DNA from: Blastocystis sp. Blastoise
Lineage: Eukaryota > Protista > Bigyra: Opalinata
DNA length: 64,000 bases
Assembly: GCA_039096225.1 (NCBI GenBank)
Contig: JBBPEB010000011.1
Span: forward strand, 496,001 to 560,000
Direction of reading: 5' to 3'
Part shown: positions 13,489 through 64,000 of the stretch, piece after piece
Position numbering within the stretch: the first letter of the stretch is position 1
How the letters are laid out: every line of letters begins with the position of its first letter
The notes under the pieces: generated by a model
Seen by the model: the letters and a program-made list of their open reading frames with translations, nothing else
Databases searched by the model: none
Told to the model about the DNA's origin: nothing
Made by a program: the position numbers and the translations under genes

Positions 13489-13522
<34 letters not shown>

Positions 13523-13524
<2 letters not shown>

Positions 13525-14870: not shown

Positions 14871-14919
<49 letters not shown>

Positions 14920-15273
14920 TTATAGTATAATATATTCGTATATAGAATTCATATAATACATTAATAATAATAATAATAAATATATCTATATACTTTAAGT
15001 TTTCATAATAATTGACAGAACATATGATAAGTATCTTTATCATCAAATGCATGACTACGAGTTAATTGTTCAAAAACCTCTTCAATTAATAATTTTAAGA
15101 ATTCTAAACGAGATTCAGGTTTAACAAAGAGATAACGTCTCATAGAAGTCATCATTAATAAACAATGTAAACAAGTGACTGTAGTAGGAGGATAGCAGGA
15201 GTAATAACTAGATAAAGAAGATAATGATGACAATAATAATAAGTATAATAATAAGTATAATAATGATAGACAT
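13523..15273 (-). pseudogene. XPO7: Captured exportin-7 (RanBP16) gene fragment with introns
   Basis: CLHCLLMMTSMRRYLF..ESRLEFL..DKDTYHMFCQLL*KLK / ANFQLSELF / FTIDSFKNWQWCSNSFSYLLTLWS*L / LIDVILNNLRYW match exportin-7 motifs ([42 protein letters not shown]). In-frame stops; no recognisable N- or C-terminus. Confidence 0.85.
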
Positions 15274-32460: not shown

Positions 32461-35400
32461 TCAGTATTCTGTTTTAAAAAGATAATATATACAATGGAGA
32501 ATGAACAATATATACGTATATGTACATATAGGTTATATACATGGATTATATATATATATAGGTTATATAATAAATGTTTTATATATATATAAATCTATCC
32601 TAAATTAAAATAATCAACTAGTATTTATTAACTCATTCTTATTATAAGTAATTATATTATATTGTTGTTTTTATATTTACTTTTTATTATATATATATAT
32701 TTTATTATTATAATATTAATAAATTATTTTATTTATTCTCTTTGTATAATATATAATAGTTATTAATCTTTTAGTTTTTAATATGATTTTAAGTGAAAAC
32801 AATTGAAAATAAAGCTTATATATATATTTATAATATTTTTAGAAAATATTTTTATTTATTGAAAATAACCTTAAAACCATTTAATTAAGCTTTTTAAAAG
32901 CTAATTTTACACTTATTCATCTCTACAAGTGTATTGCTATTAAAAGAAAACATAAATATAATAAAATATTTTATCTCAGTATTTGTTAATCAGTTTGATA
33001 AAAGTTCGTTATTTGTATATATTTTGACTCAAAACGACTCACTGACAATCAATCAACACTACAACGTCAATAAAGCTCATAAGTAAAACAAATATGAAAG
33101 TAATTGCCTTCAAGAATGGAAGTTTTTTACATCAGTAACCTTAAAACCATTGTCAGAGTACAATTTATATATTTATAAACAACCATATTACATAAGCATC
33201 AATATATACATTTTTCTTAACTTCAAAGTGAAGTTTTACTAAAAATATTACAAAGTCGAAATAACCCCTGGATTTTAGTACTTTTCTTATATATAAAAAA
33301 ATTTCATACAAATTCATATTCAGGGGCATGCTTATTCTTTTTTCAAGAAAACACTTACAAAAATCTTTATATTTATTAATATTTATAAAGTTGGTTGTTT
33401 TCTTTAAAATGGTATTTTTTTTCATTCCCTATATATCTATTATTCTATAGCTTGTATATATAACTCAAATTATTCAAAAATAAGCACAGATTCTCTTCGT
33501 GATTCTAAATATAGCTTCTTCTATAACGATCAGCTGACCAGAAATAACTTGATTTCAAAGGTAGCCTCTCTTGTTGTTCTGCTTCAAGGAAATGCGATTC
33601 TCCATGAGCTCTTAAACTGTATGTATTTATTTATCCTTTTATTTATTACATTTCTATAATTATATTTTTATAGGTTCCTTATATGAGTAGAAAACAAAGT
33701 CCCTCGGTCAAAATTAAATAATAGTTTTTTATATTTTGCTTTATTTAATTGTTTATTCTTTAATTTTTTTGTATTTTGTTATTTTTATTGTTTTTTATGC
33801 TTAAACAACTAAAATATGTATTAAAAGAAGACAAAGAAATAATGTGTTTAAAACAGTCTAAAATAACCCTAATGAAAGTCTAAAATGTAAAATAGATGTT
33901 GTTATGGACATTTTTATCTTATATATATCAACAGTAAATACAACCACTGTCATTATGGAATACCAAAAATAAACATTAAAAATAAGTCGTAGTCATAAAA
34001 AGATACATGGCCCGTCACTATAGGAATACAAAACCCACCATAAGTTTATACCAGGAAAAGTCCTGTATATACCAGAAAATCACTTTTTTTATACCAAAAA
34101 ACAGCTAGGGTGCATACCAGAATTTTCACGATTTTAAAAAGCTGCCCACCAGTGTTATTAAACCATCAATTTATATATAAAGTTTCCATAAAATATTCTT
34201 TCACAAAATATATCTAATTAAAATAATATAGAATACATGTTTAATATCATTATGAACATTATTAATATAAAAAAAACAATATGTCAAATAAATCAATATC
34301 TTTTTATAAAACTAGTTATTATTGCTATACAAACAACTCAAAAATTTTCTATTAATAAAATATTTTTCTGACAATTTTATTTTATATATGTTAAGTCCAG
34401 TTAAATAGAATTAAGAGTAGTAGTTCGTTATTGATATGATAAGAGTACAAAAAAAGACAAGTTTATGATTAATAAATGCACTATCAGCGATATTTTAATT
34501 ATTAAATGTATCTGATTGGTTGATTTTGGTTCAAAACTTGTTCCACCAATGGAATGAGATTTACTTCAGCGACTTAGGCAAAAATCGTGAATTTTGACAA
34601 AATTTTGACACTTTTTTTCAGTTTAGTTTTTCTTAGGTATAAAAAACCATATTAGACATATTTTATTAAAAAATTGACATTATTTTCTCGTCTTAGAATG
34701 TCACATAATATCAAAAACGTTTTTAGTTTGTTTTAAGTCGAAATTTGGTTAATTCATCGGGTCCATATTATAAAGTTTTTTATAGTTGTGTTTGGAGTAA
34801 AAGATTTTTAAGAGTCATATATACGAATAAAAATTAATAAAATGGCCGCTATGGCTCAAAACCAAATTTCAGCCAAAAATTCAAATTTTGTTATTTTTTT
34901 TTCAGTGAAAAAAAATAACCGAGCCTATTTGTTTGATGGACAGTCAGACCAGAGTCTTAAATTTTTGAAATACTTACGGGAATGTTTTTCCCATTCAAAA
35001 CTTGGTCTATTTCTATTTTTGAATTAAAACATGTCTAAATATAATTGAAAATTGTTTTAAGACTCATTTCATATCAGATATGAGTATATGAGCCACAAGA
35101 CACCCTTAATGATGCGTCAATAGAATATTTTGCATCAGATTCAAATATTTGTTTGTGTGTTGATTTCACAATTGTATCATAGCATAATCACCCTAAATTA
35201 TATGCTATAAACATTATAGTTGCCCAAATTATTTCATATCGATTTTGAGTAAATCAATATAATTTGTTAGTTTTTATTTAAAAGTAAGAAGACACAACTA
35301 ATTTTTATTCTATATGACGAACAGCTTGTAACATTTGAATTAGGTCAATGAATGATTAAAAAACGAAGAAAAATTTTTTTGTAAAAAACAGCGAGTTTTC

Positions 35401-35888
35401 TTCGTTTTTTTTAAACGAAGAATTTTTATTATAATTATTGTTAACAAAATGTCATAATTTATTTTAAATTGATAAATGTGTTTGATTATTATAGATATAA
35501 TTGCTACACGTATTACTTTATAATCTTATAGATTTTTTTATATGTTGTTGTTAATCTGTTGTCTTTTTAGTTTTTCCTTTCGATGTTTACAGTTGTTAAT
35601 GAAGTTATGCCTTTCAATAATGGTTTTGGATATTTATTAGAGTATTTAAGAAGTTATGCTGCCACAATTCTTTTGTGAATTAACTACATCGGTTAAGTTT
35701 TATGATTGTTACTATTGTCTACGGCTTGTCTAATCATATTAAACAAGAACAGAATATGTTTTTGTGCAAAAATTAAATTCATGTTTTGTTCTGATTTAGA
35801 ATTACATACTTTTCTGTATTTATTCATTTATTTAACTTTACTAAAAATCATTGTATAGTAATTATTATATATATATATTATATAATAG

Positions 35889-36239
35889 ATGTCTATCATT
35901 ATTATACTTATTATTATACTTATTATTATTGTCATCATTATCTTCTTTATCTAGTTATTACTCCTGCTATCCTCCTACTACAGTCACTTGTTTACATTGT
36001 TTATTAATGATGACTTCTATGAGACGTTATCTCTTTGTTAAACCTGAATCTCGTTTAGAATTCTTAAAATTATTAATTGAAGAGGTTTTTGAACAATTAA
36101 CTCGTAGTCATGCATTTGATGATAAAGATACTTATCATATGTTCTGTCAATTATTATGAAAACTTAAAGTATATAGATATATTTATTATTATTATTATTA
36201 ATGTATTATATGAATTCTATATACGAATATATTATACTA

Positions 36240-36288
<49 letters not shown>

Positions 36289-37634
36289 CTATTTCTTTAG
36301 GCTAATTTCCAGTTATCAGAACTTTTCAGAACTCCACGATATAGTGAATTTATTCGTCTTTTAACAAATTTTACTATTGATTCCTTTAAGAATTGGCAAT
36401 GGTGTAGTAATTCTTTTAGTTATTTACTTACTTTATGGAGTTGACTGATTTGTGCTGAACGTTATGTTCAGATCGGTTCAGATATTGATAATACAAGTTG
36501 TTTTAATGAATCTGTTCATCAATTAATACAAGCATATATTAATGGTAAAATGGAAAGTGTAGATGATTATGTTGATGATGATATGAATAACCCTCTTAGT
36601 GATACAGAAAGCTTAGCCATAGAAATGCAACAATTACCTCAAATAGTCAGATATTTTTTTAAGTGAATACTACATATATATGTAACTGCTTTGATCCTCT
36701 TAATGAAGAATATAATGTATATAGTATTATTATAATAATCTCTTTTTTTGTTTATATTTGCATTTAAATATACGTTTATATTTATATTCATTATTATATT
36801 TATTACTTCTATTCTCGTGTATTTCTAGACCCTTCTTTATCAATTTTCTAAAGTATGAGTAAATACTACAGATTATCAAGAATTGGCGAATAAAACAATT
36901 ATTGAGCAATATATATATTCTTAAACAATTATTTATAGGCTGTCTTTCGTGGTTTTGTAATACTGTTGTTACTGTTTTTATTAATCAAGTATTCAGCAAA
37001 CACAGGTTCAAAATAACTATCATTAATAGGTACAGAAGTTATTCAACTTAAACATAATGCTAGTTATTGACTTAACGTAAATATATATAAACTATATTAT
37101 AATATGTTATTATATATTATTATATATATTATTATATATTATTACATTTGTTTTTGCTTTCGTTTTTACAGTATATATATATATGTATAAATATATATAT
37201 ATAGAATTGATTTAGTAGGATTAATTCCAACATGGAATTATCATTAAATTTTCTTTGAACAATTCAGAAATATAGATATATATATGAGAATAAGAAGCGT
37301 CTTCCTGATGATACCTTTCTTGATATGAATTCCTCTCGAAAAGAGCAATTATATATATTTATTGGCTATGTATTAATAGATAGAAATTAAATATATATAT
37401 AAATAATTTATCAATATTGCATTGATGATTTATCTTATTTTTTGTCTAGATGTAAGAAGAGTAATATATTAAATCACTTAATCGATGTAATTTTGAATAA
37501 CCTTCGTTATTGGGAAGATAATACAGTGATTATTAAAAATTGCTTAGATATATTCCTTAATCTCTGTAATGATCATGCCTGCTCTCAATTACTATTAGAT
37601 ATATCAACTACTCAATATCCACTTGAAACATATA

Positions 37635-37636
<2 letters not shown>
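35889..37636 (+). pseudogene. XPO7: Captured exportin-7 fragment (copy in A2)
   Basis: Mirror of 13523-15273 with the same stops. Confidence 0.85.
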
Positions 37637-37670
<34 letters not shown>

Positions 37671-37937
37671 TTATTATTACAAGCGTTACACAGAAATATT
37701 TATTTACATTCTATAGATTCTGCTTTTCATAATTTTATTTCTCACTTCTAGATTTTATGATATTATAATAAGAATAAAAAGAATCATGTAAAGAAAATAA
37801 TAAGAATATAAGTATGAGTGCCTTATAGGTACTAATTATAATAATAATATATTATCTTATAATAATGATAAGAATTATATTAATGTTATAACTAAGAAGA
37901 ATAATATGAATGATGAAATTAACTTTTTTGGCGATAA

Positions 37938-40579
37938 TAATAGTATTATTACTTCCTTATAATACTATTACTTATACTATTATTATTACTACTACTTCCT
38001 TATAATATTATTACTTACCTATAAAATTATTACTACTACTTCCTTATAATATTATTACTTCCTTATAATATTATTACTTACCTATAATATTATTACTTAC
38101 CTATAATATTATTACTATTTACCTATAATATTATTACTTACCTATAATATTATTACTATTTACCTATAATAATATTACTTACCTATAATATTATTACTTA
38201 CCTGTAATATTATTACTTACCTGTAATATTATTACTTACCTATAATAATATTAATACTACTTCCTTATAATATTATTACTTTCCTATAATACTATTATTA
38301 CTTACCTATAATAATATTACTTACCTATAATATTATTACAACTTCTTTATAATAATATTGTAATTGCTTCCTTATTACTACTACTTCCTTATAATATTAT
38401 TACTTTCCTATAATAATATTACTACTTACTTATAATAATATTATTACTACTTACTTATGATAATACTAATTCCTTATAATATTATTACTTCCTTATATTA
38501 TTACTACTTACTTATGATAATATTAATTCCTCATAATATTATTACTTCCTCATATTATTATTACTTCTTTATAATATTATTACTTCCTTATAATGTTACT
38601 ACTTACTTATAATATTATTACTTTCCTATAATAATATTACTTACTTATAATAATATAACTTATAATGTTAGTACTTATAGTATTATTACTTCCTTATAAT
38701 ATTATTACTTACTTATAATACTATTACTTCCTTATAATATTATTACTTACTTATAATATTATTACTTACTTATAATAATATAACTTATAATGTTAGTACT
38801 TATAATACTATTACTTCCTCATAATACTATTACTTCCTCATAATATTATTACTTACTTATAATAATATAACTTATAATGTTAGTACTTATAATACTATTA
38901 CTTCCTTATAATACTATTACTTCCTCATAATACTATTACTTCTTTATAATATTATTACTACTTACTTATAATATTATTACTTACTTATAATATTATTACT
39001 TCCTTATAATATTATTACTTCTTTATAATATTATAACTTATAATGTTAGTACTTATAATATTATTACTACTTACTTATAATATTATTACTTCCTTATAAT
39101 ATTATTACTTCCTTATAATACTATTACTTCCTTATAATACTATTACTTCTTTATAATACTATTACTTCCTCATAATATTATTATTTCCTTATAATATTAT
39201 TACTTCTTTATAATATTATTACTACTTACTTATAATATTATTACTTCATTATAATATTATTACTTCCTCATAATACTATTACTTCCTTATAATACTATTA
39301 CTTCCTCATAATACTATTACTTCCTCATAATACTATTACTTTCTTATAATACTATTACTTTCTTATAATACTATTACTTCCTCATAATACTATTACTTCC
39401 TCATAATACTATTACTTCCTTATAATATTATAACTTATAATGTCAGTACTTATAATATTATTACTACTTACTTATAATATTATTACTTCCTCATAATACT
39501 ATTATTTCCTTATAATACTATTACTTCCTTATAATATTATTACTTCTTTATAATATTAATACTTCTTTATAATGTTACTACTTCTTTATAATGTTACTAC
39601 TTCTTTATAATGTTACTACTTCTTTATAATGTTACTACTTACTTATAATATTATTACTTACCTATAATAATATAACTTATAATGTTAGTACTTATGATAA
39701 TATTATTACTTCCTCATAATATTATTACTTCCTTATAATACTATTACTTCCTTATAATACTATTACTTCTTTATAATAAGATTACTTCTTTATAATAATA
39801 TTACTTCTTTATGATATTATTACTTCATTATAATACTATTACTTCCTTATAATACTATGACTTCTTTACAATACTATTACTTCCTCATAATATTATTACT
39901 TCCTTATAATAATATTATTACTACTTACTTATATTATTATTACTTCCTTATAATACTATTACTTCCTTATAATATTATTACATCTATATAATACTATTAC
40001 TTCATTATAATATTATTACTTACTTATAATAATATTATTACTACTTACTTATAATAATATTAATTCCTTATAATATTATTACTTCCTTATAATATTATTA
40101 CTTCATTATAATATGACTTCCTTATAATACTATGACTTCATTATAATAATATAACTTATAATGTTACCATTTACTTATAATAATATTATTACTACTTACT
40201 TATAATATTACTTCATTACAATATTATTACTTCATTTTAATAATATAACTTATAATGTTACTACTTACTTATAATAATAATATTACTACTTCATTATAAT
40301 ATTACTTACTTATAATTTAACTACTTACTTATAATATTATTACTTCCTTATAATGTAACTACTTCCTTATAATAATATTACTTCTGTACAATACTATTAC
40401 TTCTTTACAATACTTTTATTTCTTTATGATACTATTACTTCTTTATAATACTATTACTTCTTTATAATACTATTACTTCTTTATAATACTATTACTTCTT
40501 TATGATACTATTACTTCTTTATGATAATATTACTTCTTTATGATACTATTATTACTACATCCTTAAATATTATTACTTC
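37938..40579. repeat. 19-bp minisatellite inside A2
   Basis: Reverse complement of 10580-13221. Confidence 0.9.
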
Positions 40580-42880
40580 CATATATTACTGCTGTATATT
40601 ACAGTTATTAATAACAAAAACAAAAGTCATATCAAGTGTATTAACAATAAGAATAATAATAAAGCATGAAGAAGAATGAATGCTATATTAAGAATCAGTA
40701 ATTTGGATGCAAATACTAAGATACTAAGATTATAAATAATAGTACATATACTAATACTAATAAAGAATCAATAATATTAATAGTCTTCTCTATATAACAA
40801 TCAGAAGATCATGAAGTATAATAGTATTACTAGTATAAGCCTTTTTATTCTAACAACTGATTATATTTTCATCGTAATACAAATATTTCTTCAAAATAAT
40901 CTTCCTCTTGTTAGAACATACCCATACTGTTATGTCTCCTTGTATTTTTATATAATAAGCTGATGATGACACTACTACTATTACTAAACTCCTACAATTT
41001 TCTTCTTGTTTTCGTTATAATACGCATGCTCATAATAATTATAAGAATTCTTAAATATAATAGAAATATTTTGTGCTACTACTACCGTTATTATTATGTC
41101 TAGTTGTAATGATATTAAAGATATTTTATATGTGTCATGTCTTTTTACATTCTTATTCCAATAATACTATATCTAATACTAATGATATTCTGCTACTTAA
41201 ACTATTATACACCAAATCCTTTTTCTGTCTATTGCTTCTAATATTGTTAATACTTATATATTTGGAATATACTACTATGCAATACCTTTTATATTTTTCC
41301 TCTTTCTTCTCCTAATACTACGTATAATAGTAGTTATTAATAAGAACAATGATAAGATTATAATTATGTTTTCTATTCTTGTTTTCTAATTTCTCTTACA
41401 TTTTGAATCAATTAAAATATTATGCTATGTCATTAAATGATTGTACCTCCTTTACTAACAGTTTTTAAATTAATTTAAATACCAAAAATGTTATGATATC
41501 AATATGTAATTCGGTTTTCGTAATCATATCTTTAAAGAAAGAATACCATAAGTAATAATACTTGAAGTACTATTACTTTCTTTATAACCTCTACTGATCT
41601 TAGATCATAAATAGTTCTATCACAACTATCAATGAATGTCTATTATTACTACTAATAATACTATAGATTAATGAGATTATAATATAGTATTGCTATGCAG
41701 ATTCTCCTTTTAATTATTTTTTCTTCTATCTCTTTTCTTACTCTCATCATATGACTGTTCATACAAAAATCATATATTACTCATTATGGTTTGCCATTAA
41801 TATTTCATTTATTAGTAACAAAAGATCTACTAATATGGTTATTGAAAATGGTTTAGTAAAATATATAGAAAACATATATTACTGTAATAATTACTTTATG
41901 AATTAATAACAATAAAATAGGATTATATATTAAACATTTAAAAAAATATATGAGAATTTAGAAGATTAAATTAAATAAGTCTATGCTCATTCTATTTTGA
42001 ATAGAACATGTAATAGTTTTTAAATAAGATGCTTTATTATTATGGATAGAAAAATACAATGAAATAAGGATATATTCAGTAAATATGAATGAATTTAGTA
42101 CAAATCAATATAATATATATATTATTCGATATAATATTAGATACTTGAAAAGTTCGATGATTATTGCTTCATATATATAGATTATTGGTGAAAAAAGTTG
42201 TAAATAGATATGAATTTGAACATTTTTTTATGTATTATTTAAAACATTTATTCACTGTAATTTTAACTATTATGAAGTTGAATTAAGTTAGAAAAACCTA
42301 CTATGATCTGCTTTTATGTTATGAAATTCATTAATAACAAGAACAACCAAAAAGTGATTATAAGAGATAATATGTATGAAATTATACATTAAAAATATAA
42401 ATTATAAAAAAGTCAAAGTTTAAATACGATTATACATATAATTTTATAAGTATTTACATGGAAATGTACCCATTCACATGCATGTAGTCTTTTGGTATAA
42501 ATGTTGTATAAGTATAAACATCTTCTGAAGTTACTGTCAACGTAGACCTTTGGATAGTCTTTTCTTTGGTTTGTTTTTCCTATATAAAGAAGAATAAAGT
42601 ATAGAAACAATAAAAGATATTATTTGACAAAATTTTTTATAGTTAATAATATATAAATAATTAGTATTAAGAATATATATATGCATATAAAGATGAAGGT
42701 AATCATTCTGATAATTAAATATATATAAAAGTAAAATGAATTCATTATAATAATTATTATATTAGTAATTAAAAGATTTATCTACACAATGAAATATAAA
42801 AAATGATACTAAATAACTATTACTAATATACATACGATGTATTTATTATGATACTAATATGAATATATTATTATTTATTA

Positions 42881-45800
42881 TTAATTAATATAAGTATATA
42901 CTTCACAAAGAATGTCATCAGGGGTTTTATTTGTATGTATATCCATTACTAAAACGTTTGAAGCAAGAAATATGTTAATATTTTGGAATCCTTGAAACCC
43001 TTGACTGTCCATAAAGTGATAATATAATCCTGTTGCAGATGATAATGCTGGACCATAATCGTAATTCATTACAAATATGGAATCATTCACCTTTATATAT
43101 TTTAAGGCCTTTACAAGATGTGGCTGATGATTATTTTCTTTTTCATAATATATCAAGTATGAATTATCTATTCTATGTACACCATCATCAACTTGGCTGG
43201 TTGTATATATAAGTTTGTTATTAACAAGGATTCTATCATAGAAACTAACAGATAGTTTATTATAATTATCCTTCAACTGATGAAAATTATTTTCTATAAA
43301 TAAGTTTAAATTATAATTTCTATTTTCTCCTGTCCAACCAATAATACCATCTATTAGATAATTAATAAGTGTTTGAGATCCTTCTTCAAGAATTATTTTG
43401 AGAAACTGGAAAAGTACTTTATCTGGCATCTCTATCGGTTCAGAATAATGAGAACAACTAGCAGAATATATATATGTTTTATTGTTTCCAACAGGATTAT
43501 AGTAAATAGTATTCTTATCATGTTGCATATCTTCACATGGTTGAGATATATTACTTATTTCGTTTCTGTTATTGGATCTTCCTTGATGATCATTAGATAC
43601 TAAAATTGTTTCTTTGGTTATTGATGACATGCAGCAGGAAATATTAAATTCATTGCGAGAATGAGATGAGTGCTTAATTTTAGAATAATATGATTCTGAT
43701 TTCCAAGTTGATGTTACTGATAAGCTTCCTGTATTTCTTAAACATGAGACCAAGTGCTGGATAGAATGTATTTGAGATGTAATTAATTGCTTTGGCAGTA
43801 TAAGCTCACAGAGAAATGTGAATGTAAAACATTTCTTTTCAAGCATTTCCAAGTCTTCGATATCATTCGCTTTATATATATGGCAATCATGAATAATAGA
43901 AGCTAATAATTCGAAAAGAGGTATTATAGGACTGTCTTTTGAATTAAAATCATATAATATTAATGGTAATATTTTAGAAACGAAAAATATTTTCGTGTGT
44001 GTATTTATTTTGTTGAACATTGTTTCATCTAGTATATAACGAAACTGGTATTCACAATCCCCATATATACTATTAACTGCTGAGATACGTGTTTCCAAAA
44101 TGCTTTTATTTGTTGGGTTTAGTTCAAATGGTTTCCTCTGGTTTTCTTTAGTATTATCATTTTCTTTTTCATTTGAGGATGTCTTTTTATTCGATTGATC
44201 TTCCTTCATATTACTTACATTACTATCTTCCTTCATATTACTATCTTCCTTCATATTACTTTCATTACTATCTTCCTTCATATTACATTTATTACTATCT
44301 TTCTTCTTCTTACCTTTATTACTATTTTTCCTCTTCTTACCTTTATTACTTTCTTTCTTCTTCTTACTTTTATTACTTTCTTCCTTCTTCTTACTTTTAT
44401 TTTTATTTTCCTTCTTGAATCCAAATAATAAACTTAATAAAGTATTACAAACATTTCCAAAAAGATGCATAGTATCTAATGGAAATGATGTTGAAGGATT
44501 AAAGTAGCTAAGTTGTTCAGAAGTACTTCTTACCTTTTTTATTCCTTTATTGTAGGATGGATTATCATTATTACTACTTCTTATTTCAGTAATTACTTCT
44601 TTAGAATATGGATTGTATCTAATATTAGTAAATGAATCTTCATATAACTTACAACTCTTCGAAAAGGATTTGTACATGATATATGGTTTACTATTTATAT
44701 AAGTATTCGTTTTATTAATCCATTTAAGAAGAAACTGATAACATGGAATATATATATGGACTCCAGTATTCGACTTTTGAACTGATATAGATACATGAGA
44801 ATAGGAACACTTCATACCTTCATGTAATAGTTCAGCATGCTTATCGCTTTGCATATCGCAAAATCTACAAGGATATGTAGATGATGGACCTAAAAATTTA
44901 CCTACATGAGATAATGCTGCAGAATCTCCAAATGTATTAATTAATATGCCAACTACTTTCCTATTCTGTAATCTCCCATCAAGATAAATATCCATGTTTA
45001 TTCCAGCTTGGAGTAACTTGAATTCAGCCATCAGTATATCAAGGCATAAGTCAATAGAAGGCTCATCTACGCAAGTATACATATAGAACTCTCTTTTATC
45101 GTACTTTCTAAATTTCTTATAATTTAATAATTGGATCAAAATTGGGTTTGAAGAACTATTCTGCTTAGTAACAGCCTTATCAAACATCGATATACCGTCT
45201 GTAGTAACGTTGAATGATAAAATGATATCACCATTATTGGCACAATCTCTAAGATATGATTTATAATTCATTCCTAGCATGTAATTTGGTATATTTTGAA
45301 TCATTGAATCTAGGTTACTATTATTAAGACTACTATATATTTGTTCTATCTCATCTTTTCGATAAAATTCAATATCTTGTATATAATATGGAGATGAAAG
45401 TATGGCTTGAAGTCGGGGAATTAGTGGAATAATAACTTGTTTGTTACCTATATAAGAATTATATAATGTTTTGTGATATATATATATATATATATAACTA
45501 CTTCTAGAAATATATACATATATTTCCGTTGCATATAGGATTACTACATGTTATATCTTTAAATAATGGATATGCTTGTATTGTATTATATGTATGTATT
45601 ACATGACACTTATTACATGAAAATATATTTATATGAAGAGGCTTATATATAGAATTTCTAACATATTTTCTTACAATATTTTGTGAGCATTTGGGTATTG
45701 TTAATATAGGAAGATCAATGTCAAATTCGCTTATTAAATTATTTATTAATTCATACAAATTTGCTACTTTTTGAAAGCTAATACCTAGTTTTCTCCAACA

Positions 45801-46132
45801 CTCAAAAATTAGGTCATTCATGGCATCCTCTTTTGTACTCACTTTCTCATGAATTATCTAGATAAAATGATTAGTAGGTATTGTGTTGAAGAAATATAAT
45901 AATGGCTTATATTAAAAGAGAGGTATATATTATATATATATTAATATAAACCGTATACTTTTTGTGATAAGATGAGTTGCATGATCTGCCTTATAATATC
46001 ACCATTTTCTATCTCAATTGGTGTATTCTCATTATTTAAAGAAATATTCACATTGTTGATTTCATCTGCAATCAAGGTAGTTGATCTATGATAAGTGTCA
46101 TGTCTCTCAGATAATAATGTTGCTATGATCAT
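42881..46132 (-). CDS. CACTA transposase (copy A2), 3 exons
   Basis: The 807-aa main ORF and upstream exon ORFs are identical to A1. Confidence 0.9.
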
Positions 46133-46329
46133 TAATGTTATTTCTTATTTTTATATCTTACTATTTATTCCTGATTTCTTCTTATTAGATATCTTATGTC
46201 TATAATTATTCATTATAACAAATACTATGAAAAATGTTTATTAAAAAAAATAAAATTCATTTCTTCTGTAGAATTTTACTGATTATTATCACGGTTTTCA
46301 TATATATTTTTTCTTTTACTTTCTTTTTC

Positions 46330-47116
46330 ATGGAATCATCTACTTTATCTTCATTAGAAAGAAATAAAATTGATAGTCTTCAAGAAGATATCTATAAAGC
46401 TATCGAACATTATTTTAACGAATTAAAAGGTGAAGAGACAAATGGTATTTCAATTTAATTCTTTGGTAATAATTATTTAGAAAAGACTATTCGTTGCTCA
46501 GATGTTTTTATAGAATGTGAGGCTATGATAAGAAGACTTTCCATTAAAAGAGATATTCCATTTAGAAACAAGAAGTTGAATTCAAATAAATTAAAAGTAT
46601 TTATTGTATACATATATAATGTTTAATTCAATAGACTATAATAAAGGTAATTCCTTTTTGCTTACCTGAAGCTATACGAAAAAATGCAAAATCCATGTTT
46701 ACATTAAAAAAGAATAATATATGTTTAGATCATGAGTCAGAGGTCTACATATATATTTGTCGTCTTGCTCGTCTTTATTTGCATACATATGAGAAACAAG
46801 ATAATTATAGTGATGAAATTATAATGGTTTGTGTTCGTGAATGTATTACTAATCGTCGTCGAAAAGGCTCGTTTCCTCAATTCTTTGGGTTTCATTTAGA
46901 TAGAGAAATAGAAATACATGACTCAGGATCCTCTGAGATTGTATGCTTTTATACGTTTCTTTTATCATTCTTTTATATAATATTCTTTATTTTTAGTTTG
47001 GCAAATGGATTCCAATTAGTCCTTTTCCAAATACAAGTTCTTATACATATATACATTATGAAACAATAATAAACAATTTGCAGAAATGCCAAGAGATTCT
47101 ACCATTCTCAGGATAA
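46330..47116 (+). CDS. Second transposon gene (copy A2); exons 46330-46444, 46481-46596, 46635-46940, 46997-47116
   Basis: In-frame splicing gives 218 aa. Confidence 0.65.
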
Positions 47117-49759
47117 ATCTTTGAATTATTCTATTTTTCTTTATTCCTTTATTCTATTTCATAATGATTGGCTATTTATCTTCTACACTATAATTCTTTT
47201 GATTTATATTAAAATGATTGGCTAAGTATTTTTAATAGAATATATTTTTATGCTGACTTTATTTTTTGTTTTACACCATACATTCATATTTTATTTTATT
47301 GCTTTGTTTATCTCACAACAAAAATATCAATGAACATATTCAATAACTATACTCTTTGAAAATGTATTTTACTTTTAAACAGTATTAAAGTATTATTGTG
47401 TCTAGGTGTCTATCAATTTTCGAATCAATTATCTTGTTAATGTATATAATGTTGTAAAATATCATAACATCTTTTTATATAGAATGTCAGGTGTTTGATT
47501 ATTCAAGGGTAGCAAGTATTTTGTTTCGTATTTCTATAATTCTTTGTTACTATTATTTAATTAACTATCAATATCCCTTTCTTTAGTTGCTTCATATAAA
47601 TTGTAACGTGCATTGAAATGACAGCTATCTTTAACGATGTGAATTAGGTATGTATAACTATTTATTGATTTGAATAATTCTAACTTATTTTTTTTATATA
47701 GAGTATTTATAGACAGAAGTAATTACCACCAGTAGATAGATTTAAAAAAATGTTTTAATGTTATTTCACAATTAGAATTTATTTACAATTTACTCGTTTT
47801 GTTTTCTAATTTTTGTTATAATGGTTAAAGCCATAGTTGCGTATAGAGTAGTTTATGAAAATAACAAAGATAAATTTAAATCATTAAATAGTTTTTAAAT
47901 TAATTATTCAAAGAGCGACCAAAAATAATCATCGTGTATATACTAAAAATCTTCATTGGGTTTTTTTATGCTTTTTGTTGTTTATTCTGTGGAGGGTATT
48001 TTTTTTCCTTGTTTAATTGTTCTGAAAAAATCTTAAATCCAAAAAGCAAAACGTGACAAAGAAGGCCATTTTTATTCATGGAAATCGCTGATAGTGATGA
48101 TTTGAAATAATTATAAATATTCTTTATTAATTATTCACTATCAGGTATTTCCGTGATACTTTTTGGAGAGTTTTGCCAAAAAATGACTAAATTACTTTTT
48201 AAGACTATTTTCAGTCAGGCGAAAAGAGTAGCCAAAAACTAGGTTATTTTTGTCGAATATGGTCTTTCTTTTCATTCGTTCAGAATTCTTTTAGAAACGT
48301 CATTTTATTATTAATTTAATCGTTGTGTGAATGATAATCAATATATATATATAACAAAAGACAATAAATAATATATAATAATTAAAATAGCAAGAAAGAT
48401 AAGAAAATAATAATTATTTTGATTTGTTTTGATAAATTGGCAACTGTATCTGAGGACTATATATATAAATTGATAGAACTAATAATAATATAGATAATAT
48501 AGAATACATACCTTCTAACATCACTTCTAGACCAACTCTTGAACAAGAACCAAAACTATAAAAATAGAATGTAAAAAAATAAATATATTATAACAATATA
48601 CCTTCTAAATCCTAGCAGTGTAGACCAAAAGGGACACCAGAGAGTACCTAGAACCTATAAAAAATTAAATTAGTTAATTTCAAAAAAATAAAATATAATT
48701 AAATACCTTCAGAAGCATTGATTTGTTGACCAAGGAGACCTGAGACAATAGTTGAACCTATATAAGATAATAAATAATAATAGCAGAGAGAATGCTAAAA
48801 AATATATACCTTTAATACAACCAGATTTCTATACGTTCAGGCCCGGAAACTCATAAACTAACTTTAAAAAAGAAGACCAATTAGGACCTATTAGAATCTA
48901 TTTTGACACACCAGTAAGCCTATATAGAATAAGATAAATAAAAAAAATATAATATACATTTAATAATATATAAAATATAGTTGTAAATTAAAGAAAAATA
49001 AAAATAAATATGTGAAAAAGTTGAATCTTATAAACAAAGAGAAATTCCCCCTTACAATTTTTTTTTTGTATAATAAAATTCTTTACAAAATCTGGGTTTC
49101 CAGGGGTTAAAACATTTTAAAAATTTCCCTTTTTCTCTAATAAAAAGTCTATTTGAATATAAAAATGATTTATAAATGTAATATGTGTTTATGAACCTAA
49201 ATTATTTAATTACAACATGTTTAAGACTTATTAGAACAAAAATATAGTTATTTAAAAAATCTTTAATTACAATTAAATATATTTGTCTGCTATTTTTATA
49301 TAATAGTATTTTATTTATAACAAGAAGGTCCTAGATAATCAAGAGAAATATTTAGTATAATCACTTATAGAGACATGATTCAAAAATTTATAAACTTTTG
49401 TTTCTAATATGATTTATTTCAACAATTTATCGATTATTGTAGATGTATAAATAGAACGAGAATGTTTGAAAGCTTTGTGAGTTGTTTAAGACATAATAAA
49501 GAATGTAATTTATTAAAGTATAAAGTAGATTAATATTTACTCTTTTTTCTATTATTCCAAAAGAATTCTATAAATAATTTTATTCCTAAATATCAACAAA
49601 ACAAATAGAGTAATATATAAAGAAATAAAACAAAATAAAAGATAGATAAAAAAGATAATATATAGTATATATATAGTAATATATCATTATAATATATATA
49701 ATATGAATAATTTATTAAACTCCTTTCTATTCTATATATACATGATTATAAAACCATAT

Positions 49760-55582: not shown

Positions 55583-55670
55583 TACTAATTCTTATCATAT
55601 AGAAAAATCAAGGGAATAAAGAAAAATACACTATAAAATATATTTTTCACATAAATAACTATTTTAAACA

Positions 55671-56342
55671 ATTTGATTGGTTAAATCAGTGATGACGCAC
55701 CCTCTGTCATCCATTTTTACTTTTCTAACTTTTTATATATTCTATTTACTTACTTACTACTTTATAAAAAAAATGAATAAGTAAGTACGTAACCCCATAT
55801 ATACAAAAGTTTATTTTGACAAAAAAAGAAGCCAGTTCGGAATCATTTGATTGGATGAATCTTGGAACACAATTTATCATCCAATAAAAATTATGTGTTC
55901 CAAAAAGATGAAATTTGATTGGTTAAATCAGTGATGACGCACCCTCTGTCATCCATTTTTACTTTTCTAACTTTTTGTATATTCTATTTACTTACTTACT
56001 ACTTTATAAAAAAAATGAATAAGTAAGTACGTAACCCCATATATACAAAAGTTTATTTTTGACAAAAAAAAGAGCCAGTTCGGAATCATTTGATTGGATG
56101 AATCTTGGAACACAATTTATCATCCAATAAAAATTATGTGTTCCAAAAAGATGAAATTTGATTGGTTAAATCAGTGATGACGCACCCTCTGTCATCCATT
56201 TTTACTTTTCTAACTTTTTGTATATTCTATTTACTTACTTACTACTTTATAAAAAAAATGAATAAGTAAGTACGTAACCCCATATATACAAAAGTTTATT
56301 TTTGACAAAAAAAAGAGCCAGTTCGGAATCATTTGATTGGTT
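55671..56342. repeat. Subterminal tandem repeat, ~2.8 x 242-243 bp
   Basis: Units start ATTTGATTGGTTAAATCAGTGATGACGCACCC at 55671, 55913 and 56156; near-identical. Confidence 0.95.
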
Positions 56343-56526
56343 GAACGAAATGTTGTTCTTTAAAATATTTCAAATCAAAAAATGAATTTGATATCTTTTA
56401 AATTCACCCCTGGATTTTTGTTTCCATTATAAAAATATAATAAATGAAATATACCCCCATTGTTATAATTTTTATATATTTTTTTAATATAAAATATTTC
56501 TCATTTTTATTTTATTTTTGGAAAGA

Positions 56527-56943
56527 ATGAGTGAAGGTGCTTTCAGATTATTGAATTTCAAGGAAAAGTCAAATTAGTAAATATTTAAGATATATATATA
56601 TATATATTAATTATATAGTTCCGTTGAAGAACTTAATCAAATTAAGAAAGATCTTTGTGAATCATTAAGATCTCAATTAATAATGACTAAATTAAGTATT
56701 GATATTATAAAAAGGAATTGTCAACGTACTAAAGGAAACCAGTATTTATTAAGTAAGCAAATGATGAAATACTTTGATAAAGAATATTCTCCAGCAATTA
56801 ATAAAGCTTTAAATTTAATTGAAGAAAGTGATGATAATATTATGAATACAATTAATAAAAATAAAGAAGATTTTATTAATTTTGATAAATGTTTTGATAA
56901 GATGCTTGATTATCAGTCTAGAATATCGAAATATTTTCATTAA
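56527..56943 (+). CDS. Viral hypothetical protein with a 42-nt intron (56577-56618), ~124 aa
   Basis: MSEGAFRLLNFKEKSN(Y)SVEELNQ... joins in frame to ORF 56683..56943 after removing GTAAAT..TATAG. Confidence 0.65.
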
Positions 56944-58022: not shown

Positions 58023-58958
58023 ATGAGAAATAAAAATTTTGATGCCATTAAGTTAGCAATAATCAAAAGTACCTATTGTGCTGGAAGTAAACGTAAATTT
58101 GCTATTATTATAGAAAAATATATTGAATATTTGCCTTGGGAAAAATTTAAGCAATTCTTGGAAAATCCTTATGCTTTTGCTGATGAATTGGTGAATAAGA
58201 AGTTTATTAAGATTCATGAACTACTGAAATTATCTGAATTAATCTTATATTTAATAAAGGTAAAACACTTTGAATCTAATTTTTGTGAAGATATTCATAA
58301 TGATTGGTTAGAATTTAAAGATATTATTAAGAGTGCTTATGAACAATCCCTTCGTGAAAAGAAATCTGCTAGAATAGAAAATCTTCGAAAAGAATATCCA
58401 AATATAGAATCATTAGAATGTAAACGTGATGAATTAGATAAAGATGATATACTTAGAATTATTATTGATTTATATATATTATGTCCTCCTCAACGTGCTG
58501 ATTATGGTATATGTTCTATTCAAACACCAGAAACTGTAACTAATAAAATGAGAAATTATATCATTTTTGATAAGAATAATGAAACTGCTGAAATTCATCT
58601 GAAAGATTATAAGACTTCATATAAATATGAAGAAATTATAATTAAGAATAATGATAAGTTATATGAAGATATGAACTATATGTTAGAAAAAGAACCTGGT
58701 AGAGTGTTTATATTTGAAAAGACTCCTGGTAAACCATTTTGTGATGTTAAAGATTATGATAGATATATTAATAATCATTTACGTAGATTACATCCAGAAT
58801 TAACTATTAATGGTTGTCGTTTCTATTATGCTACTACAAATTGTACTTCTTTTTCTTCTTTAAGAGATGATTCTGATAGATTAGCTCATACTAAAAGAAC
58901 TCATATTGGCAGTTATGTCTCTTTTACTCAAAGTGATTTATATAAAAAATTAATTTAA
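58023..58958 (+). CDS. Tyrosine recombinase/integrase (Polinton-like-virus type)
   Basis: PPQRADY (R), DYKT (K), TINGCR (HxxR variant), LAHT (H), HIGSY (Y) in canonical order. Confidence 0.85.
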   Translation: MRNKNFDAIKLAIIKSTYCAGSKRKFAIIIEKYIEYLPWEKFKQFLENPYAFADELVNKKFIKIHELLKLSELILYLIKVKHFESNFCEDIHNDWLEFKDIIKSAYEQSLREKKSARIENLRKEYPNIESLECKRDELDKDDILRIIIDLYILCPPQRADYGICSIQTPETVTNKMRNYIIFDKNNETAEIHLKDYKTSYKYEEIIIKNNDKLYEDMNYMLEKEPGRVFIFEKTPGKPFCDVKDYDRYINNHLRRLHPELTINGCRFYYATTNCTSFSSLRDDSDRLAHTKRTHIGSYVSFTQSDLYKKLI

Positions 58959-59600: not shown

Positions 59601-60197
59601 TTATGTAGGTATGATGGTACCTAAACTAGTTAAATATAATAATGCATAATAGAAACATCCATTAGAGTTTGAAGCAGTACTTTGGAATTGAATAGGGTTG
59701 TATTGAATATTATGTGTCTTAATAAATTGTGGAGAAAATTCTGGAGAATTCCCAAGACTGGAATAGAATTTCATATGTTCTGGACTTTCATAGATAACAG
59801 CTTCAAAATGACCGAAATTAGGGTCATCTTCAGATTGATGAAATAACATATTAAAGTTAGATTTTATATTATCAATATTATGTTCAAAATCATTTAAATT
59901 ATCCCAATATTTCCATGAACCTTTACATTGTGTATTCAGATTTTTCATTGTAGAATCTGCTATATCACATGCAACAGGGTCACATGGATTATTTAAATAT
60001 CCATATTTATATATTTTTGAAATTAAGTTTCTATTAATTATACCAGATAATTGAGCCAATGATTTAGCTATACTATCCAGAGGTTTAGGCTGACTAGATA
60101 ATTGTTTATCAGAATAAATTTTTGTATTACAATTTAATTTATCTTGAATAATATCTTCATCAGGGCTCACTTTTAAACCTCTGGTTGGTAGTTTTTT
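59601..60197 (-). CDS. Adenain-like (clan CE) maturation cysteine protease, no ATG at its 5' end
   Basis: GHFEAV (His), FYSSLG (cf. YFDSFG), IQYNPIQFQ (oxyanion Gln), GCFYYAL (Cys). The frame stays open upstream through the A7 run of the core ORF. Asp and Cys spacing is non-canonical. Confidence 0.7.
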   Translation of the reverse strand, partial: KKLPTRGLKVSPDEDIIQDKLNCNTKIYSDKQLSSQPKPLDSIAKSLAQLSGIINRNLISKIYKYGYLNNPCDPVACDIADSTMKNLNTQCKGSWKYWDNLNDFEHNIDNIKSNFNMLFHQSEDDPNFGHFEAVIYESPEHMKFYSSLGNSPEFSPQFIKTHNIQYNPIQFQSTASNSNGCFYYALLYLTSLGTIIPT

Positions 60198-61291
60198 TGT
60201 AATCCAGCTCCTTCACCACAACCATTTTGTTGACATTGTCGTTTAGCAGCTTTACATTTTTGCATATATTCATAAAAGGCACGACCACGTAATTTTCTTG
60301 GTTTTTTCAATCCAGAAGCATTATTAGGTTGCATTGCTTCTGCTAATGCTCTTTTCTTTGCTTCTATTTCTTGTTCTTGATAAACATTATCTACATTATT
60401 ATCTAATTTATTATTTTCATTGGCTTTTCTCCAAAATTCAGGTGTGAATATTTTACCAATTGCACGTGGAATTGCTGCAATATTATTTCCTAAATTCGTG
60501 ACACCATCTTTTATTGCATTTGGATTAGTTGCTAATCCTTCAAATGCTTTTGAAGCCGCACCAATACCAGCCAACATTGTAAGGAATCCACCACCTTCTT
60601 TCCAAAATTTTCCACCACGACGTACAGTACATCCGTTACCACTTGAATCACCTGAAAAATTAATATAAGAACACAATTGTCTTTTTGAGGGTCTTTTAAT
60701 ACCACATCCAACTTTATTTAACCCTTTACCACCTAAATTCATGGTACTTGCTATACTTCTTATAATTGAAGGTGGAATTAGCATTCCAGCACGAATTCTA
60801 TGTTTTGACCATTTCTTATAATCTTTCATAGCTTCTTGAGAATAGCCAGCTGCTTTTAATACACCTTGACCAATTGAATTATATAATTTTGACATTTCTG
60901 CTTTATTAAAAGCTAATCCATTTCCATTTTTAGGTTCTAAAGCATCTGATTCTGAAATTACTTTTTTATTTGTAATTCCACGTCCATTTCTTTGAATACC
61001 TATTCTTGTAACTGGATTAGCAACAACCAATGAACCACCAGAATCACCATTATTATCACCAAACATTTTATCTCGATTAACATAATTATCAACATTACCA
61101 TTATTTACTTTTTGTGTTTTTAATTGTCTTGTCTTTGCAACACTATTTTCAGGTATTGCTACCATTAATGGATTATGCCTTTCAGCATTATTTAATGGTT
61201 GTGTAATATAATTTCTATTTTCTTTTCCATGTCCTAAATGAATAATACCTTTATCACCTGGACTTGGATATTTTAATATAGTTTGTTCCAT
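60173..61291 (-). CDS. Basic Gly-rich virion core protein precursor with repeated GxG/GG cleavage-like motifs
   Basis: SGGSL, NGRGI, NGNGL, GGKGL, VGCGI, SGNGC, EGGGFL, GAGL; GGFLTMLAGIGAA resembles the adenovirus pX/mu GG[F/I]L amphipathic segment. Likely start MEQTIL at 61291. Confidence 0.65.
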   Translation of the reverse strand: MEQTILKYPSPGDKGIIHLGHGKENRNYITQPLNNAERHNPLMVAIPENSVAKTRQLKTQKVNNGNVDNYVNRDKMFGDNNGDSGGSLVVANPVTRIGIQRNGRGITNKKVISESDALEPKNGNGLAFNKAEMSKLYNSIGQGVLKAAGYSQEAMKDYKKWSKHRIRAGMLIPPSIIRSIASTMNLGGKGLNKVGCGIKRPSKRQLCSYINFSGDSSGNGCTVRRGGKFWKEGGGFLTMLAGIGAASKAFEGLATNPNAIKDGVTNLGNNIAAIPRAIGKIFTPEFWRKANENNKLDNNVDNVYQEQEIEAKKRALAEAMQPNNASGLKKPRKLRGRAFYEYMQKCKAAKRQCQQNGCGEGAGLQKNYQPEV

Positions 61292-61325: not shown

Positions 61326-62126
61326 TTAAGCAATTTTAATTGTTACATCTGAATATTCATCATAATTTTTAATATTAAATTTATTCTTACGAATATATCG
61401 TAAAACCTCTTTATAATATACATTATTTCGACCTAATTCAACAAGCATATTCTCATTATCAGATAAGTATATATGTAATGTTTCAGGAGCAGACTTTAAA
61501 TAGTTTATTAACTTATTGTTATCAAATATTATAGGTATATATTTATCATACATATTCATATAGGGTGGGTCCATATAAATAATACCATTTTGTATATTTT
61601 TAAGTAAATCATGATAATAATCACCACAAATAAATGAAACAGGCTGAATTAATTCTGAAATTTCTTTCAAATCATTTTCAGTATAAATAATAGGATTAGT
61701 ATAATTACCATAACCAACATTAAATTTTCCTTCACGATTTATTCTCCATACACCATGATAACATGTTTTATTTAAATACAGAAATAATGCAGCACGTTCT
61801 ATAGAATCTTTACTTTCATTAAATATTGTTCTATATTTATAATAATGTTCACAATCTATTTTATCATGAATATTTTTTAAATAATCAACAATAAGTCTAT
61901 AATCTAATTGGAGTATTTTCCAAAAATTAATTAAATCTGAACACATATCACATGCAAAATATTTTCGAGTAATATTATTAGTTTTATCAAATTTTAATAC
62001 ATTAATTAATATTGTTCCACCACCTAAGAATGGTTCATAATAATCTAAATTATTATTAAATCGTTCTTTAATAACAAAATCAGAAACAATATAATCTTTA
62101 TTTCCAACCCATTTTAATAATGGCAT
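61326..62126 (-). CDS. dam: Dam-family (D12 class) N6-adenine DNA methyltransferase
   Basis: LKWVGNK, EPFLGGG, FLYLNKTCYHGVWRINREGKFNV, YMDPPY. Confidence 0.92.
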   Translation of the reverse strand: MPLLKWVGNKDYIVSDFVIKERFNNNLDYYEPFLGGGTILINVLKFDKTNNITRKYFACDMCSDLINFWKILQLDYRLIVDYLKNIHDKIDCEHYYKYRTIFNESKDSIERAALFLYLNKTCYHGVWRINREGKFNVGYGNYTNPIIYTENDLKEISELIQPVSFICGDYYHDLLKNIQNGIIYMDPPYMNMYDKYIPIIFDNNKLINYLKSAPETLHIYLSDNENMLVELGRNNVYYKEVLRYIRKNKFNIKNYDEYSDVTIKIA

Positions 62127-62264: not shown

Positions 62265-63044
62265 TTAATCATCAATTTCATTAACAGGAACAATATAATC
62301 AAGAGAACTACCAAGTATCTTTAATTGTTTAAGACCACGTGTAATATACCATTCTTTATCATAATATTTAACTCTATCTAATTTCATAATAGCAATAGCA
62401 CTATCCAAGGCAGAAATGTATTGAGTACAATTCGAAGTATTAATGATTGGATTATAATGATTATTAATAAGCTTACCATCTTTATCATATAAATCAAAAG
62501 CCAATTGATTTCTAGTATTCTTAAAGATTTTTATACTTACAATATTCATTGGATATTTTTGCCAAGTCTTCTGTTGAGTAATAGCATGCATAGGAACAGA
62601 TTCATTACCAAGTTCTTTATCTAAATTCAATTTTAACTTACCTCTTTCATCATTAACGCTATCAGGAACATGTATCTTTTCAAATATCTTATGGCTAACA
62701 TCAACTCTAATGGCTTCCAATAACTTTACAAAATCTTTGTTTTCAGTACCTAAAGAACAAACTAAATACTTACTATTAGAATTACCAAAATCACTAAATT
62801 CATAAAGAACAACACATGTAGGAGTTTTGATTTGAAGAATCTTTCCATTATATCTTATCTTATATCCATCTTGACGACCAAGAGCAAGGTTTCTATTGGG
62901 TTCATCAGTTTCTTTATCGAGAGTAACAGTTAGTAAATCATTATTATAATCACTTAATTTAGATATTGTACAGCATTCTTCATGTAAATGACCAACAGCA
63001 GCAGCTTGGAACAAAGTACTAGATATAGGGGAAATATCAGACAT
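62265..63044 (-). CDS. Putative OB-fold ssDNA-binding protein (viral SSB-like)
   Basis: LQIKTP..FG..YLVCSL..F..LLEAI pattern, beta-rich C-terminus, acidic tail, adjacent to the primase. Assignment by pattern only. Confidence 0.5.
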   Translation of the reverse strand: MSDISPISSTLFQAAAVGHLHEECCTISKLSDYNNDLLTVTLDKETDEPNRNLALGRQDGYKIRYNGKILQIKTPTCVVLYEFSDFGNSNSKYLVCSLGTENKDFVKLLEAIRVDVSHKIFEKIHVPDSVNDERGKLKLNLDKELGNESVPMHAITQQKTWQKYPMNIVSIKIFKNTRNQLAFDLYDKDGKLINNHYNPIINTSNCTQYISALDSAIAIMKLDRVKYYDKEWYITRGLKQLKILGSSLDYIVPVNEIDD

Positions 63045-63110: not shown

Positions 63111-63320
63111 TAATGAGATACAAATGAGATACAGATGAGATATAAATGAGATACAAATTTATTATGATTGGATAATCTCGTCAGGTTTGATTCTCGATTT
63201 AGGATTTTTCATTTTATTATAAATGTTTTCATTGTTGACTTAGGATTTCGTCAGGTTTGATTCTCGATTTAGGATTTTATTACTTTATTATAAATATTTT
63301 CATTGTCGACTTAGGATTTT
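63111..63320. repeat. Direct repeats in the divergent SSB/primase intergenic region (4 x ~11-bp ATGAGATA; 2 x 70 bp)
   Basis: TCGTCAGGTTTGATTCTCGATTTAGGATTTT at 63178 and 63248. Confidence 0.85.
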
Positions 63321-63370
63321 AGTATTTTATTAATTTTAAATTTTATTTTATATTTCTTTTTATTTTTCTA

Positions 63371-64000
63371 ATGAGTACTGAACCTAAATTATCCTGTGAA
63401 TTTCAAGTATTTAATCAAGTTGATAAAACTAGTTGTCGTGCCGCCAAAATAATTGAGAATCCTGATGAATGGTATAGATCTGTTTTCGAAAGCTACTATA
63501 AACAAAAGATTGGTGAAAATACTGGTTTTGAAGAGCCACTACATTATGTTGACGTTGTTCCAAAGAATTCCGAAGGTTGTTATCGTCGTTTATGGTTTGA
63601 TTTAGATTTTTCAAAAGATACTAATGATTTCTCTATGTTTTCTGATGAAAATGTTAAAGTATTTCTTATTGGTTTATTTGATGTGTGTTGCCACTATTAT
63701 GATACAAATCTAGATGATATTAATGTTGTAATAACAAAAAAAGATGTTAATCAAAAGAAGAATGGATCAGAAATTAATTATTCATGGGGTTGTCATGTCT
63801 TTACAAATTTATTTGTTCTTCCTGATAGTCTTCCATGTTTTTATTCATTATTAATTAATCATTCAAAGATTAAAGAATCATGTGAACTACTTAATGTTAT
63901 TCCAGAAAAATTCATTGATAAAGCTGTAATTGGAAATAGAAGTCGTAATAATGGATGTATGATGCTTGGCTGTTCAAAAAATAATGTACGTTCTACTTAT
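63371..64000 (+). CDS. Archaeo-eukaryotic primase (PrimPol/D5-type N-terminal domain), truncated by the window end; missing from the ORF track
   Basis: 210 open codons from ATG 63371: RLWFDLD (motif I), WGCHVF (II), FIDKAV (III), MLGCSK. Confidence 0.85.
   Translation, partial: MSTEPKLSCEFQVFNQVDKTSCRAAKIIENPDEWYRSVFESYYKQKIGENTGFEEPLHYVDVVPKNSEGCYRRLWFDLDFSKDTNDFSMFSDENVKVFLIGLFDVCCHYYDTNLDDINVVITKKDVNQKKNGSEINYSWGCHVFTNLFVLPDSLPCFYSLLINHSKIKESCELLNVIPEKFIDKAVIGNRSRNNGCMMLGCSKNNVRSTY

Follow-up and report, generated by a model that had tools for sequence, protein, structure and literature searches.

Two overlapping ORFs on the minus strand of a virus-like gene block, a likely virion core precursor and a predicted clan-CE-type protease, probably give rise to a minor core-protease fusion through -1 ribosomal frameshifting at the heptamer A_AAA_AAC. 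The block is compact, occupying ~55.5-64 kb of an AT-rich eukaryotic window (the whole 64-kb stretch of DNA that was analysed) and continuing past the window end, and we infer that a virus of the Polinton-like (MELD) type, of which one end is seen, has become endogenous in a Blastocystis-like protist. The features on which the argument turns are as follows.

61291-60173, minus strand: Gly-motif-rich basic ORF of 372 aa, likely virion core precursor
60215-60213, minus strand: TGA shutting the protease frame on its upstream side, read from the sequence
60212-59601, minus strand: protease frame, 203 codons from stop to stop, -1 relative to the core ORF
60211-60200, minus strand: GAGL, a G-x-G motif resembling a cleavage site, directly ahead of the shift; putatively cleaved
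60197-60191, minus strand: slippery heptamer A_AAA_AAC in the core frame, inside an A7 run at 60198-60192
60190-60184, minus strand: spacer of 7 nt between heptamer and hairpin
60183-60161, minus strand: predicted hairpin of 9 bp with one bulge, containing the core stop; candidate stimulator
60182-60174, minus strand: R-G-L read in the protease frame, a candidate site for freeing the mature enzyme
60178-60090, minus strand: GT-AG stretch of 89 nt, an intron in the NCBI gene models and here judged coding
60175-60173, minus strand: core stop codon TAA, read from the sequence
59810-59808, 59684-59682 and 59657-59655, minus strand: candidate active-site codons for His, Gln and Cys respectively, of predicted activity

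The upstream ORF contains 16 GG/GxG motif starts and is basic (K+R 15.6%), and is homologous to the N-terminal part of the fused relative P0024 (E 4e-7 and 3e-5). Searches of Pfam and PHROGs gave no family match for it, and its best ESM Atlas value of 0.76 amounts to no support; it is labelled a core precursor because of its basic, Gly-motif-rich make-up and because of the fusion to a protease in relatives.

Layout of the core/protease junction

The core ORF and the protease frame share 13 codons of overlap on the minus strand, with the core frame reading CAA AAA AAC across the A-run. The protease frame is without a start of the usual kind, being closed just upstream by a TGA and having its first ATG only at 59948, which is codon 89, so that 88 codons pass without an ATG. 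The joint occurrence of heptamer, -1 overlap and missing ATG, described in the original prediction along with the 7-nt spacer, a stem-loop enclosing the core stop and the GAGL directly before the shift, is confirmed, with RNA folding placing the stem-loop at 60183-60161. As 196 protease-frame codons remain 3' of the slippery site, a -1 slip at A_AAA_AAC would give a computed product of 367 + 196 = 563 aa.

In the mechanism proposed here, the hairpin would stall ribosomes that have AAA in the P site and AAC in the A site, whereupon the Lys and Asn tRNAs would re-pair in the -1 frame and reading would continue into the protease. The majority would end at the TAA six codons past the site, giving the 372-aa protein, with a minority giving the 563-aa core-protease fusion, the core half of which could deliver the protease to the virion in a low, fixed proportion. 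Peptidase_C5 proteases cut Gly-motif substrates, and the packaged protease may free itself by cutting such motifs, one of which (GAGL) lies just before the shift and one (R-G-L) just after it. Relatives have G-G or K-G at about the position of the window's R-G-L.

The hairpin is a modest feature and a weak candidate for a stimulator. Its predicted stability of -8.6 kcal/mol corresponds to z -4.45 in a 41-nt window, with none of 200 shuffles equalling it, and to z -2.0 to -2.95 in longer windows, whilst equally stable hairpins at a spacing of 5-9 nt are found at 50 of the 2019 codon positions in 10 element ORFs, or ~1 in 40. A scan for pseudoknots at the junction returned weak AU/GU-rich options, none of them convincing. 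The case for frameshifting draws its weight from the comparative evidence.

Heptamers of the X_XXY_YYZ type are frequent in the window, with 578 on the plus strand and 582 on the minus strand, and any A7C run gives a canonical heptamer in two of three frames, so the heptamer alone would not discriminate between readings. Over the same 2019 codon positions there are 17 in-frame heptamers, one of them being the junction A-run counted again in the protease frame. A matching hairpin occurs only at the junction A-run, and a long -1 frame (196 codons) opens only behind the core-frame site, the other heptamers being followed by at most 12 codons. Long ORFs of the window contain three further A7 runs and one T9 run, with the frame intact in all of them. 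The A7 at the junction is that of the assembly sequence; of three read runs from one study, X1 covers parts of the element, with a depth of zero over 59956-60246, and X2 and X3 yielded nothing, so that the reads speak neither for nor against A7.

The protease and its ATG-less upstream part

The original prediction had taken the downstream ORF for a maturation protease, and the searches bear this out. In the ESM Atlas the protease frame adjoins Peptidase_C5 look-alikes at 0.92-0.94, with a recognition value of 2101 that lies under the tool's 2300 mark. An AlphaFold model built from 15 sequences has a pLDDT of 76 (a single-sequence model was unusable at pLDDT 32), and the best viral fold match in Foldseek is a MELD virus protease (E 1.4e-5). 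Fold matches in the PDB are of clan-CE type throughout, though weak (E 4e-3 or weaker), with the best structure alignment giving Z 5.8 and rmsd 3.9 over 113 aligned residues, and that with adenovirus protease giving Z 4.1 and rmsd 4.2 over 117. The modelled fold thus points to a clan-CE-type protease. At the level of primary sequence, Pfam PF00770 had no match at E 0.1 for the window protease or for the relatives P0004, P0005 and P0024, a PDB sequence search with the protease returned chance matches only, a word-indexed search returned none, and a PHROGs search was uninformative for the element proteins.

The assignment of His, Gln and Cys, which we take from the canonical motif, falls on residues that are invariant in all four aligned protease sequences. 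In the same four sequences Ser stands at the usual acidic position of the triad and no Gly follows the Cys, and in an alternative alignment register an Asn would fall at the nucleophile position. Despite this non-canonical site, the conserved residues suggest that the protease is likely to be catalytically active. Ser at the acidic position is common to the entire protease clade, as is a Glu that never varies two residues past the His, and the active site of the clade has possibly been rewired. An N-terminal extension of ~65 aa is conserved in the window protease.

The part of the protease frame ahead of its first ATG appears, from its conservation and codon usage, to be real protein. Measured against the codon usage of the element itself, the 30 codons behind the slippery site reach +15.7 bits, compared with -20.9 and -38.2 bits for the same stretch (60178-60090) in the other two frames, a coding score reached by 2 of 5000 shuffles. 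A search of 1.84 billion representatives with the protease gave four matches, namely the named model and three relatives of 44-49% identity, whose alignments each begin at residue 7-14 of the protease frame and therefore span the supposed intron. Because this pre-ATG part is conserved and coding-like, the protease would need ~75 codons upstream of its first ATG.

These observations bear directly on splicing, by which core and protease would be joined through the 89-nt intron at 60178-60090 or another GT-AG pair. NCBI has three named proteins, each from a different contig of Blastocystis sp. Blastoise, that are nearly the same as the two ORFs; all three copies differ by few residues and share a model in which this intron skips the junction, one of them matching the window residue for residue outside the skipped stretch and so not counted as independent. 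The annotation pipeline preferred RNA-supported introns, and intron length is variable in these hosts, according to the accessible text of PMC10690189. The element itself seems to contain a 42-nt intron (56577-56618), and 64 frame-restoring GT-AG pairs lie upstream of 60140. However, the annotated intron is coding-like, and its residues are conserved in all relative clades seen, for which reasons we judge against it; its GC content is 24%, compared with 7% in the element's candidate real intron, and the two models of a second family differ in their acceptor. Furthermore, only one of the 64 pairs has a YAG acceptor, and its use would excise 395 nt from a part of the core that can be aligned with relatives. 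Splicing is accordingly a very unlikely account of the junction.

Alternatively, the protease could be made separately, by a restart at GTG 60170 once the core stop has been passed, or by initiation at ATG 59948. The GTG lies 2 nt past the core stop in the protease frame, and the proteins of the P0004 cluster are called as separate proteins of 190 or 177 aa. A start at ATG 59948 would nevertheless lose 88 codons, mostly conserved and with predicted helices among them, and a conserved Gly lies upstream of GTG 60170. Neither codon has the AT-only leader of other genes, the 40 nt ahead of ATG 59948 having 42% GC and those ahead of GTG 60170 having 35%, compared with 0-23% for the 10 other element starts tested. 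The adenain of the published Blastocystis virus BK012044 lacks any Met whatsoever. Taken with these points, a separate start seems highly improbable, and frameshifting remains our preferred reading of how the ATG-less frame is entered.

Relatives and the Blastocystis MELD virus BK012044

Relatives of the two ORFs occur in three states. In the fused state, core and protease lie in one ORF of up to 617 aa that is homologous to both window ORFs, as in 8 of the 15 listed members of the P0024 cluster (30 members were read) and in P0023; the C-terminal part of P0024 matches the window protease at 40% identity over 187 aa. The other seven listed members of this cluster are shorter, three of them beginning at an internal Met despite long contigs. 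In this fused lineage the gene calls for P0025, P0027, P0035 and P0006, some of them with long contigs, begin at a Met that lies ~365 aa inside the 617-aa ORF, which may reflect a contig-edge effect or a second, upstream break.

In the split state, all 15 members of the P0004 cluster are at most 190 aa long, with 88 contig sightings on contigs of up to 24 kb. The proteases of this cluster are called from two alternative starts, giving 190 or 177 aa, and if the first residue is a true ATG the clade may have the protease as an independent gene. The bridged state is that of a second named family, P0005 and P0021, in which both models skip the same junction. The two models use different acceptors and therefore look like guesses of the gene predictor, which suggests that the frame break between core and protease is present in this family also. 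In a tree of eight protease rows, unrooted, with a long branch for the window and with BK012044 left out, the two fused rows form one clade (support 100/99). The P0004 and P0024 cluster proteases are 40-49% identical to that of the window, and the two lineages are likely to be further Blastocystis-associated viruses. Both have been sampled repeatedly, with 15 and 30 cluster members respectively from many public metagenome assemblies. Scans of viral, metagenome and genome contigs, and a tblastn search of phage records, returned no DNA of a relative.

The in-frame fusion in relatives has two consequences. A fixed low ratio of protease is not required across the family, and it becomes plausible that the junction in the window is a broken or mis-assembled single ORF, that is, a continuous core-protease ORF that has lost one A through a homopolymer error or through deletion in an inactive copy. 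Such continuous ORFs do occur in relatives, and the break falls within an A-run. The named assemblies are based on long reads and polished with short reads (PMC10690189, accessible text), and where endogenous viruses are present in many copies, polishing is able to introduce spurious frameshifts (PMC10120064, accessible text). Against a lost A, all three named copies carry the same model, although one may be the window copy and the comparison is judged from protein models; the second family, P0005/P0021, is also broken here by its models; the P0004 cluster is split in all 15 members; and BK012044 has the same -1 overlap. Additionally, no break is apparent in the remaining ORFs of the element within the window, the other A7 runs keep their frame, and the hairpin sits at the expected spacing. 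On balance, the loss of an A is unlikely, and a programmed -1 shift accounts better for a break that recurs in several lineages.

The Blastocystis MELD virus BK012044 was described by Starrett et al. 2021 (PMC8502044), and its adenain, as given in the supplement of PMC11071296, is a protein of 176 aa that begins with Tyr and contains no Met. If the final 37 codons and the stop of a neighbouring Gly-rich ORF are read in the -1 frame, they give residues 1-38 of this adenain, with 38 of 38 residues agreeing in a hand check from the protein sequences. Random peptide pairs, 200,000 in number, gave no run of this kind longer than 6, whilst the overlap in the window, used as a control, gave 12 of 12. 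As at the window junction, the tail of a Gly-rich ORF runs in -1 register into an adenain, here Met-free, across an A-run. By eye, the adenain shares short motifs with the window protease and the Gly-rich neighbour shares one with the core. BK012044 differs in several respects, having PolB and a retroviral integrase in contrast to the AEP primase and recombinase-like ORF of the window element, an overlap of 38 codons compared with 13, and an adenain with the canonical D-S-F-G and C-G motifs that are not seen in the window protease. Being separately assembled and having another replication module, it is a distant virus with the same architecture. This shared overlap, together with the natural occurrence of the single-ORF fusion in relatives, supports the core-protease fusion that the original prediction had put forward. 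In the accessible main text of PMC8502044 the word 'frameshift' occurs once, for a decayed human relic, and the overlap goes unmentioned.

The frames of BK012044 force an A8 at Ser-Lys-Lys-Lys, from which a core-frame A_AAA_AAG is deduced. An A-run ending or starting with G is not a standard eukaryotic heptamer, and this deduced run fits polymerase slippage or a homopolymer error equally well. Programmed transcriptional slippage, in which the polymerase would add one A on the A7 in some transcripts, would yield nearly the same fusion; seven-A editing is known from filoviruses, and a plain A-run is present at both junctions (A7 here and, by deduction, A8 in BK012044), the second of them within a heptamer that is non-standard for eukaryotes. 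By contrast, the phasing of the window run as A_AAA_AAC, with a hairpin 7 nt to its 3' side, is the ribosomal pattern, and the other A7 runs in element ORFs have no open alternative frame. We therefore consider polymerase slippage quite unlikely, and ribosomal slippage the better account of the window junction.

Known systems and the surrounding element

MMTV and HTLV use A_AAA_AAC at gag-pro. The likeness of the window to the retroviral gag-pro junctions (MMTV, HTLV, BLV) lies in the order of the genes, the protease that processes a structural precursor coming directly after it in the -1 frame, and in the heptamer A_AAA_AAC with a 3' structure. In contrast, the window element is dsDNA virus-like with a clan-CE cysteine protease and a weak hairpin, where gag-pro has a retropepsin and a pseudoknot, and Pfam, ESM Atlas, PDB and viral fold searches gave no match for Gag or retropepsin homology. 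The window cassette works like gag-pro without being a member of it, the logic being convergent. A_AAA_AAC is reported to be among the heptamers most prone to shifting on mammalian ribosomes (PMC5009743, accessible text).

Adenovirus and Polinton/virophage proteases (Peptidase_C5) share with the window protease the class of fold and the order His-Gln-Cys. Peptidase_C5 proteases are, however, usually encoded by a stand-alone gene, of ~145-150 aa in Atlas clusters, whereas the window protease has the ~65-aa extension, a Ser at the acidic position and no start of its own. Lambda gpG-GT is alike in that a DNA virus relies on a -1 shift to fix how much of one assembly protein is made relative to another, as far as the accessible sources describe it, but involves bacterial ribosomes and chaperones in place of a core and a protease.

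Frameshifting has been recognised in relatively few DNA viruses of eukaryotes, according to the accessible part of a 2021 review (PMC8310308). The preprint PMC11071296, in its accessible text, predicts -1 frameshifts for adintovirus Penton and for Hexon-Adenain ('Hexain') fusions, which resemble the window in that a -1 shift extends a virion protein, once into adenain. These cases differ from ours in being KnotInFrame predictions only, in animal viruses, and in having the major capsid or penton as partner rather than the core. The preprint is thus a precedent in outline, the core-protease shift itself being absent from its accessible text. Among the full-text literature matches listed, none describes a core-protease frameshift, and only PMC11071296 ties frameshifting to these viruses. 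The word 'frameshift' is absent from the accessible portions of bioRxiv 10.64898/2026.06.19.733378, PMC11161782 and bioRxiv 10.1101/2024.03.23.586382, and in those of PMC10120064 it is used for errors or decay only. The original prediction had held this logic to be unfamiliar from Polinton-like viruses, which stands for the pairing of core with protease and gives way to the preprint where -1 shifts into adenain are concerned.

A broader proposal, which we hold to be evenly balanced between true and false, is that Blastocystis-associated DNA viruses have independently evolved the gag-pro logic, with the -1 shift kept from the window element to BK012044, an in-frame fusion replacing it in one clade, and the protease linked to a core precursor by which it is packaged in a set proportion. 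If true, the adenovirus/Polinton supergroup would gain its first example of a programmed frameshift that is both conserved and linked to assembly, and the same fix for the packaging and dosage of a protease would have arisen in an unrelated virus realm. It would also explain the Met-free published protease and the introns invented here by gene predictors. The shifted, split and in-frame-fused states provide a natural series on when the dosage of a protease needs control, and the 40-nt cassette is small enough for a reporter.

Elsewhere in the block, the following features were recognised.

55670..56345, plus strand: repeat of 243 bp in 2.8 copies, near the left end of the element
58023..58958, plus strand: tyrosine-recombinase-like ORF, with no Pfam or PHROG match
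61326..62126, minus strand: D12 adenine methyltransferase (PF02086, E 1.7e-33)
63371..64000, plus strand: AEP primase of the C962R type, running off the window (PF23162, E 6.1e-7)

The label of the ORF at 58023..58958 is one that we take from its motifs. No double jelly-roll capsid, penton or packaging ATPase was found among the ORFs in 55-64 kb, the element extending beyond the window. A small element gene on the plus strand (56527-56943) likely contains the 42-nt GT-AG intron at 56577-56618, with a GC content of 7%, the removal of which restores the frame from ATG 56527; this host-like intron suggests nuclear transcription of the element. A 259-aa ORF on the minus strand (62265-63044) has no significant family match, and presumably, from its motif, is similar to single-strand DNA binding proteins of viruses. 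A 71-bp repeat in 2 to 2.4 copies (63178-63351), which is a candidate origin or promoter element, separates two divergent genes immediately upstream of the primase.

Outside the block, the window contains an inverted repeat of 13.6 kb (3063-16683 and 34479-48096), the arms of which are 99.98% identical. Each arm carries an 889-aa ORF, transposase-like by eye and without a Pfam match, and a skewed tandem array of 2.5 kb, with ~18 kb of host-like genes between the arms. The repeat may represent a giant element or a recent inverted duplication.
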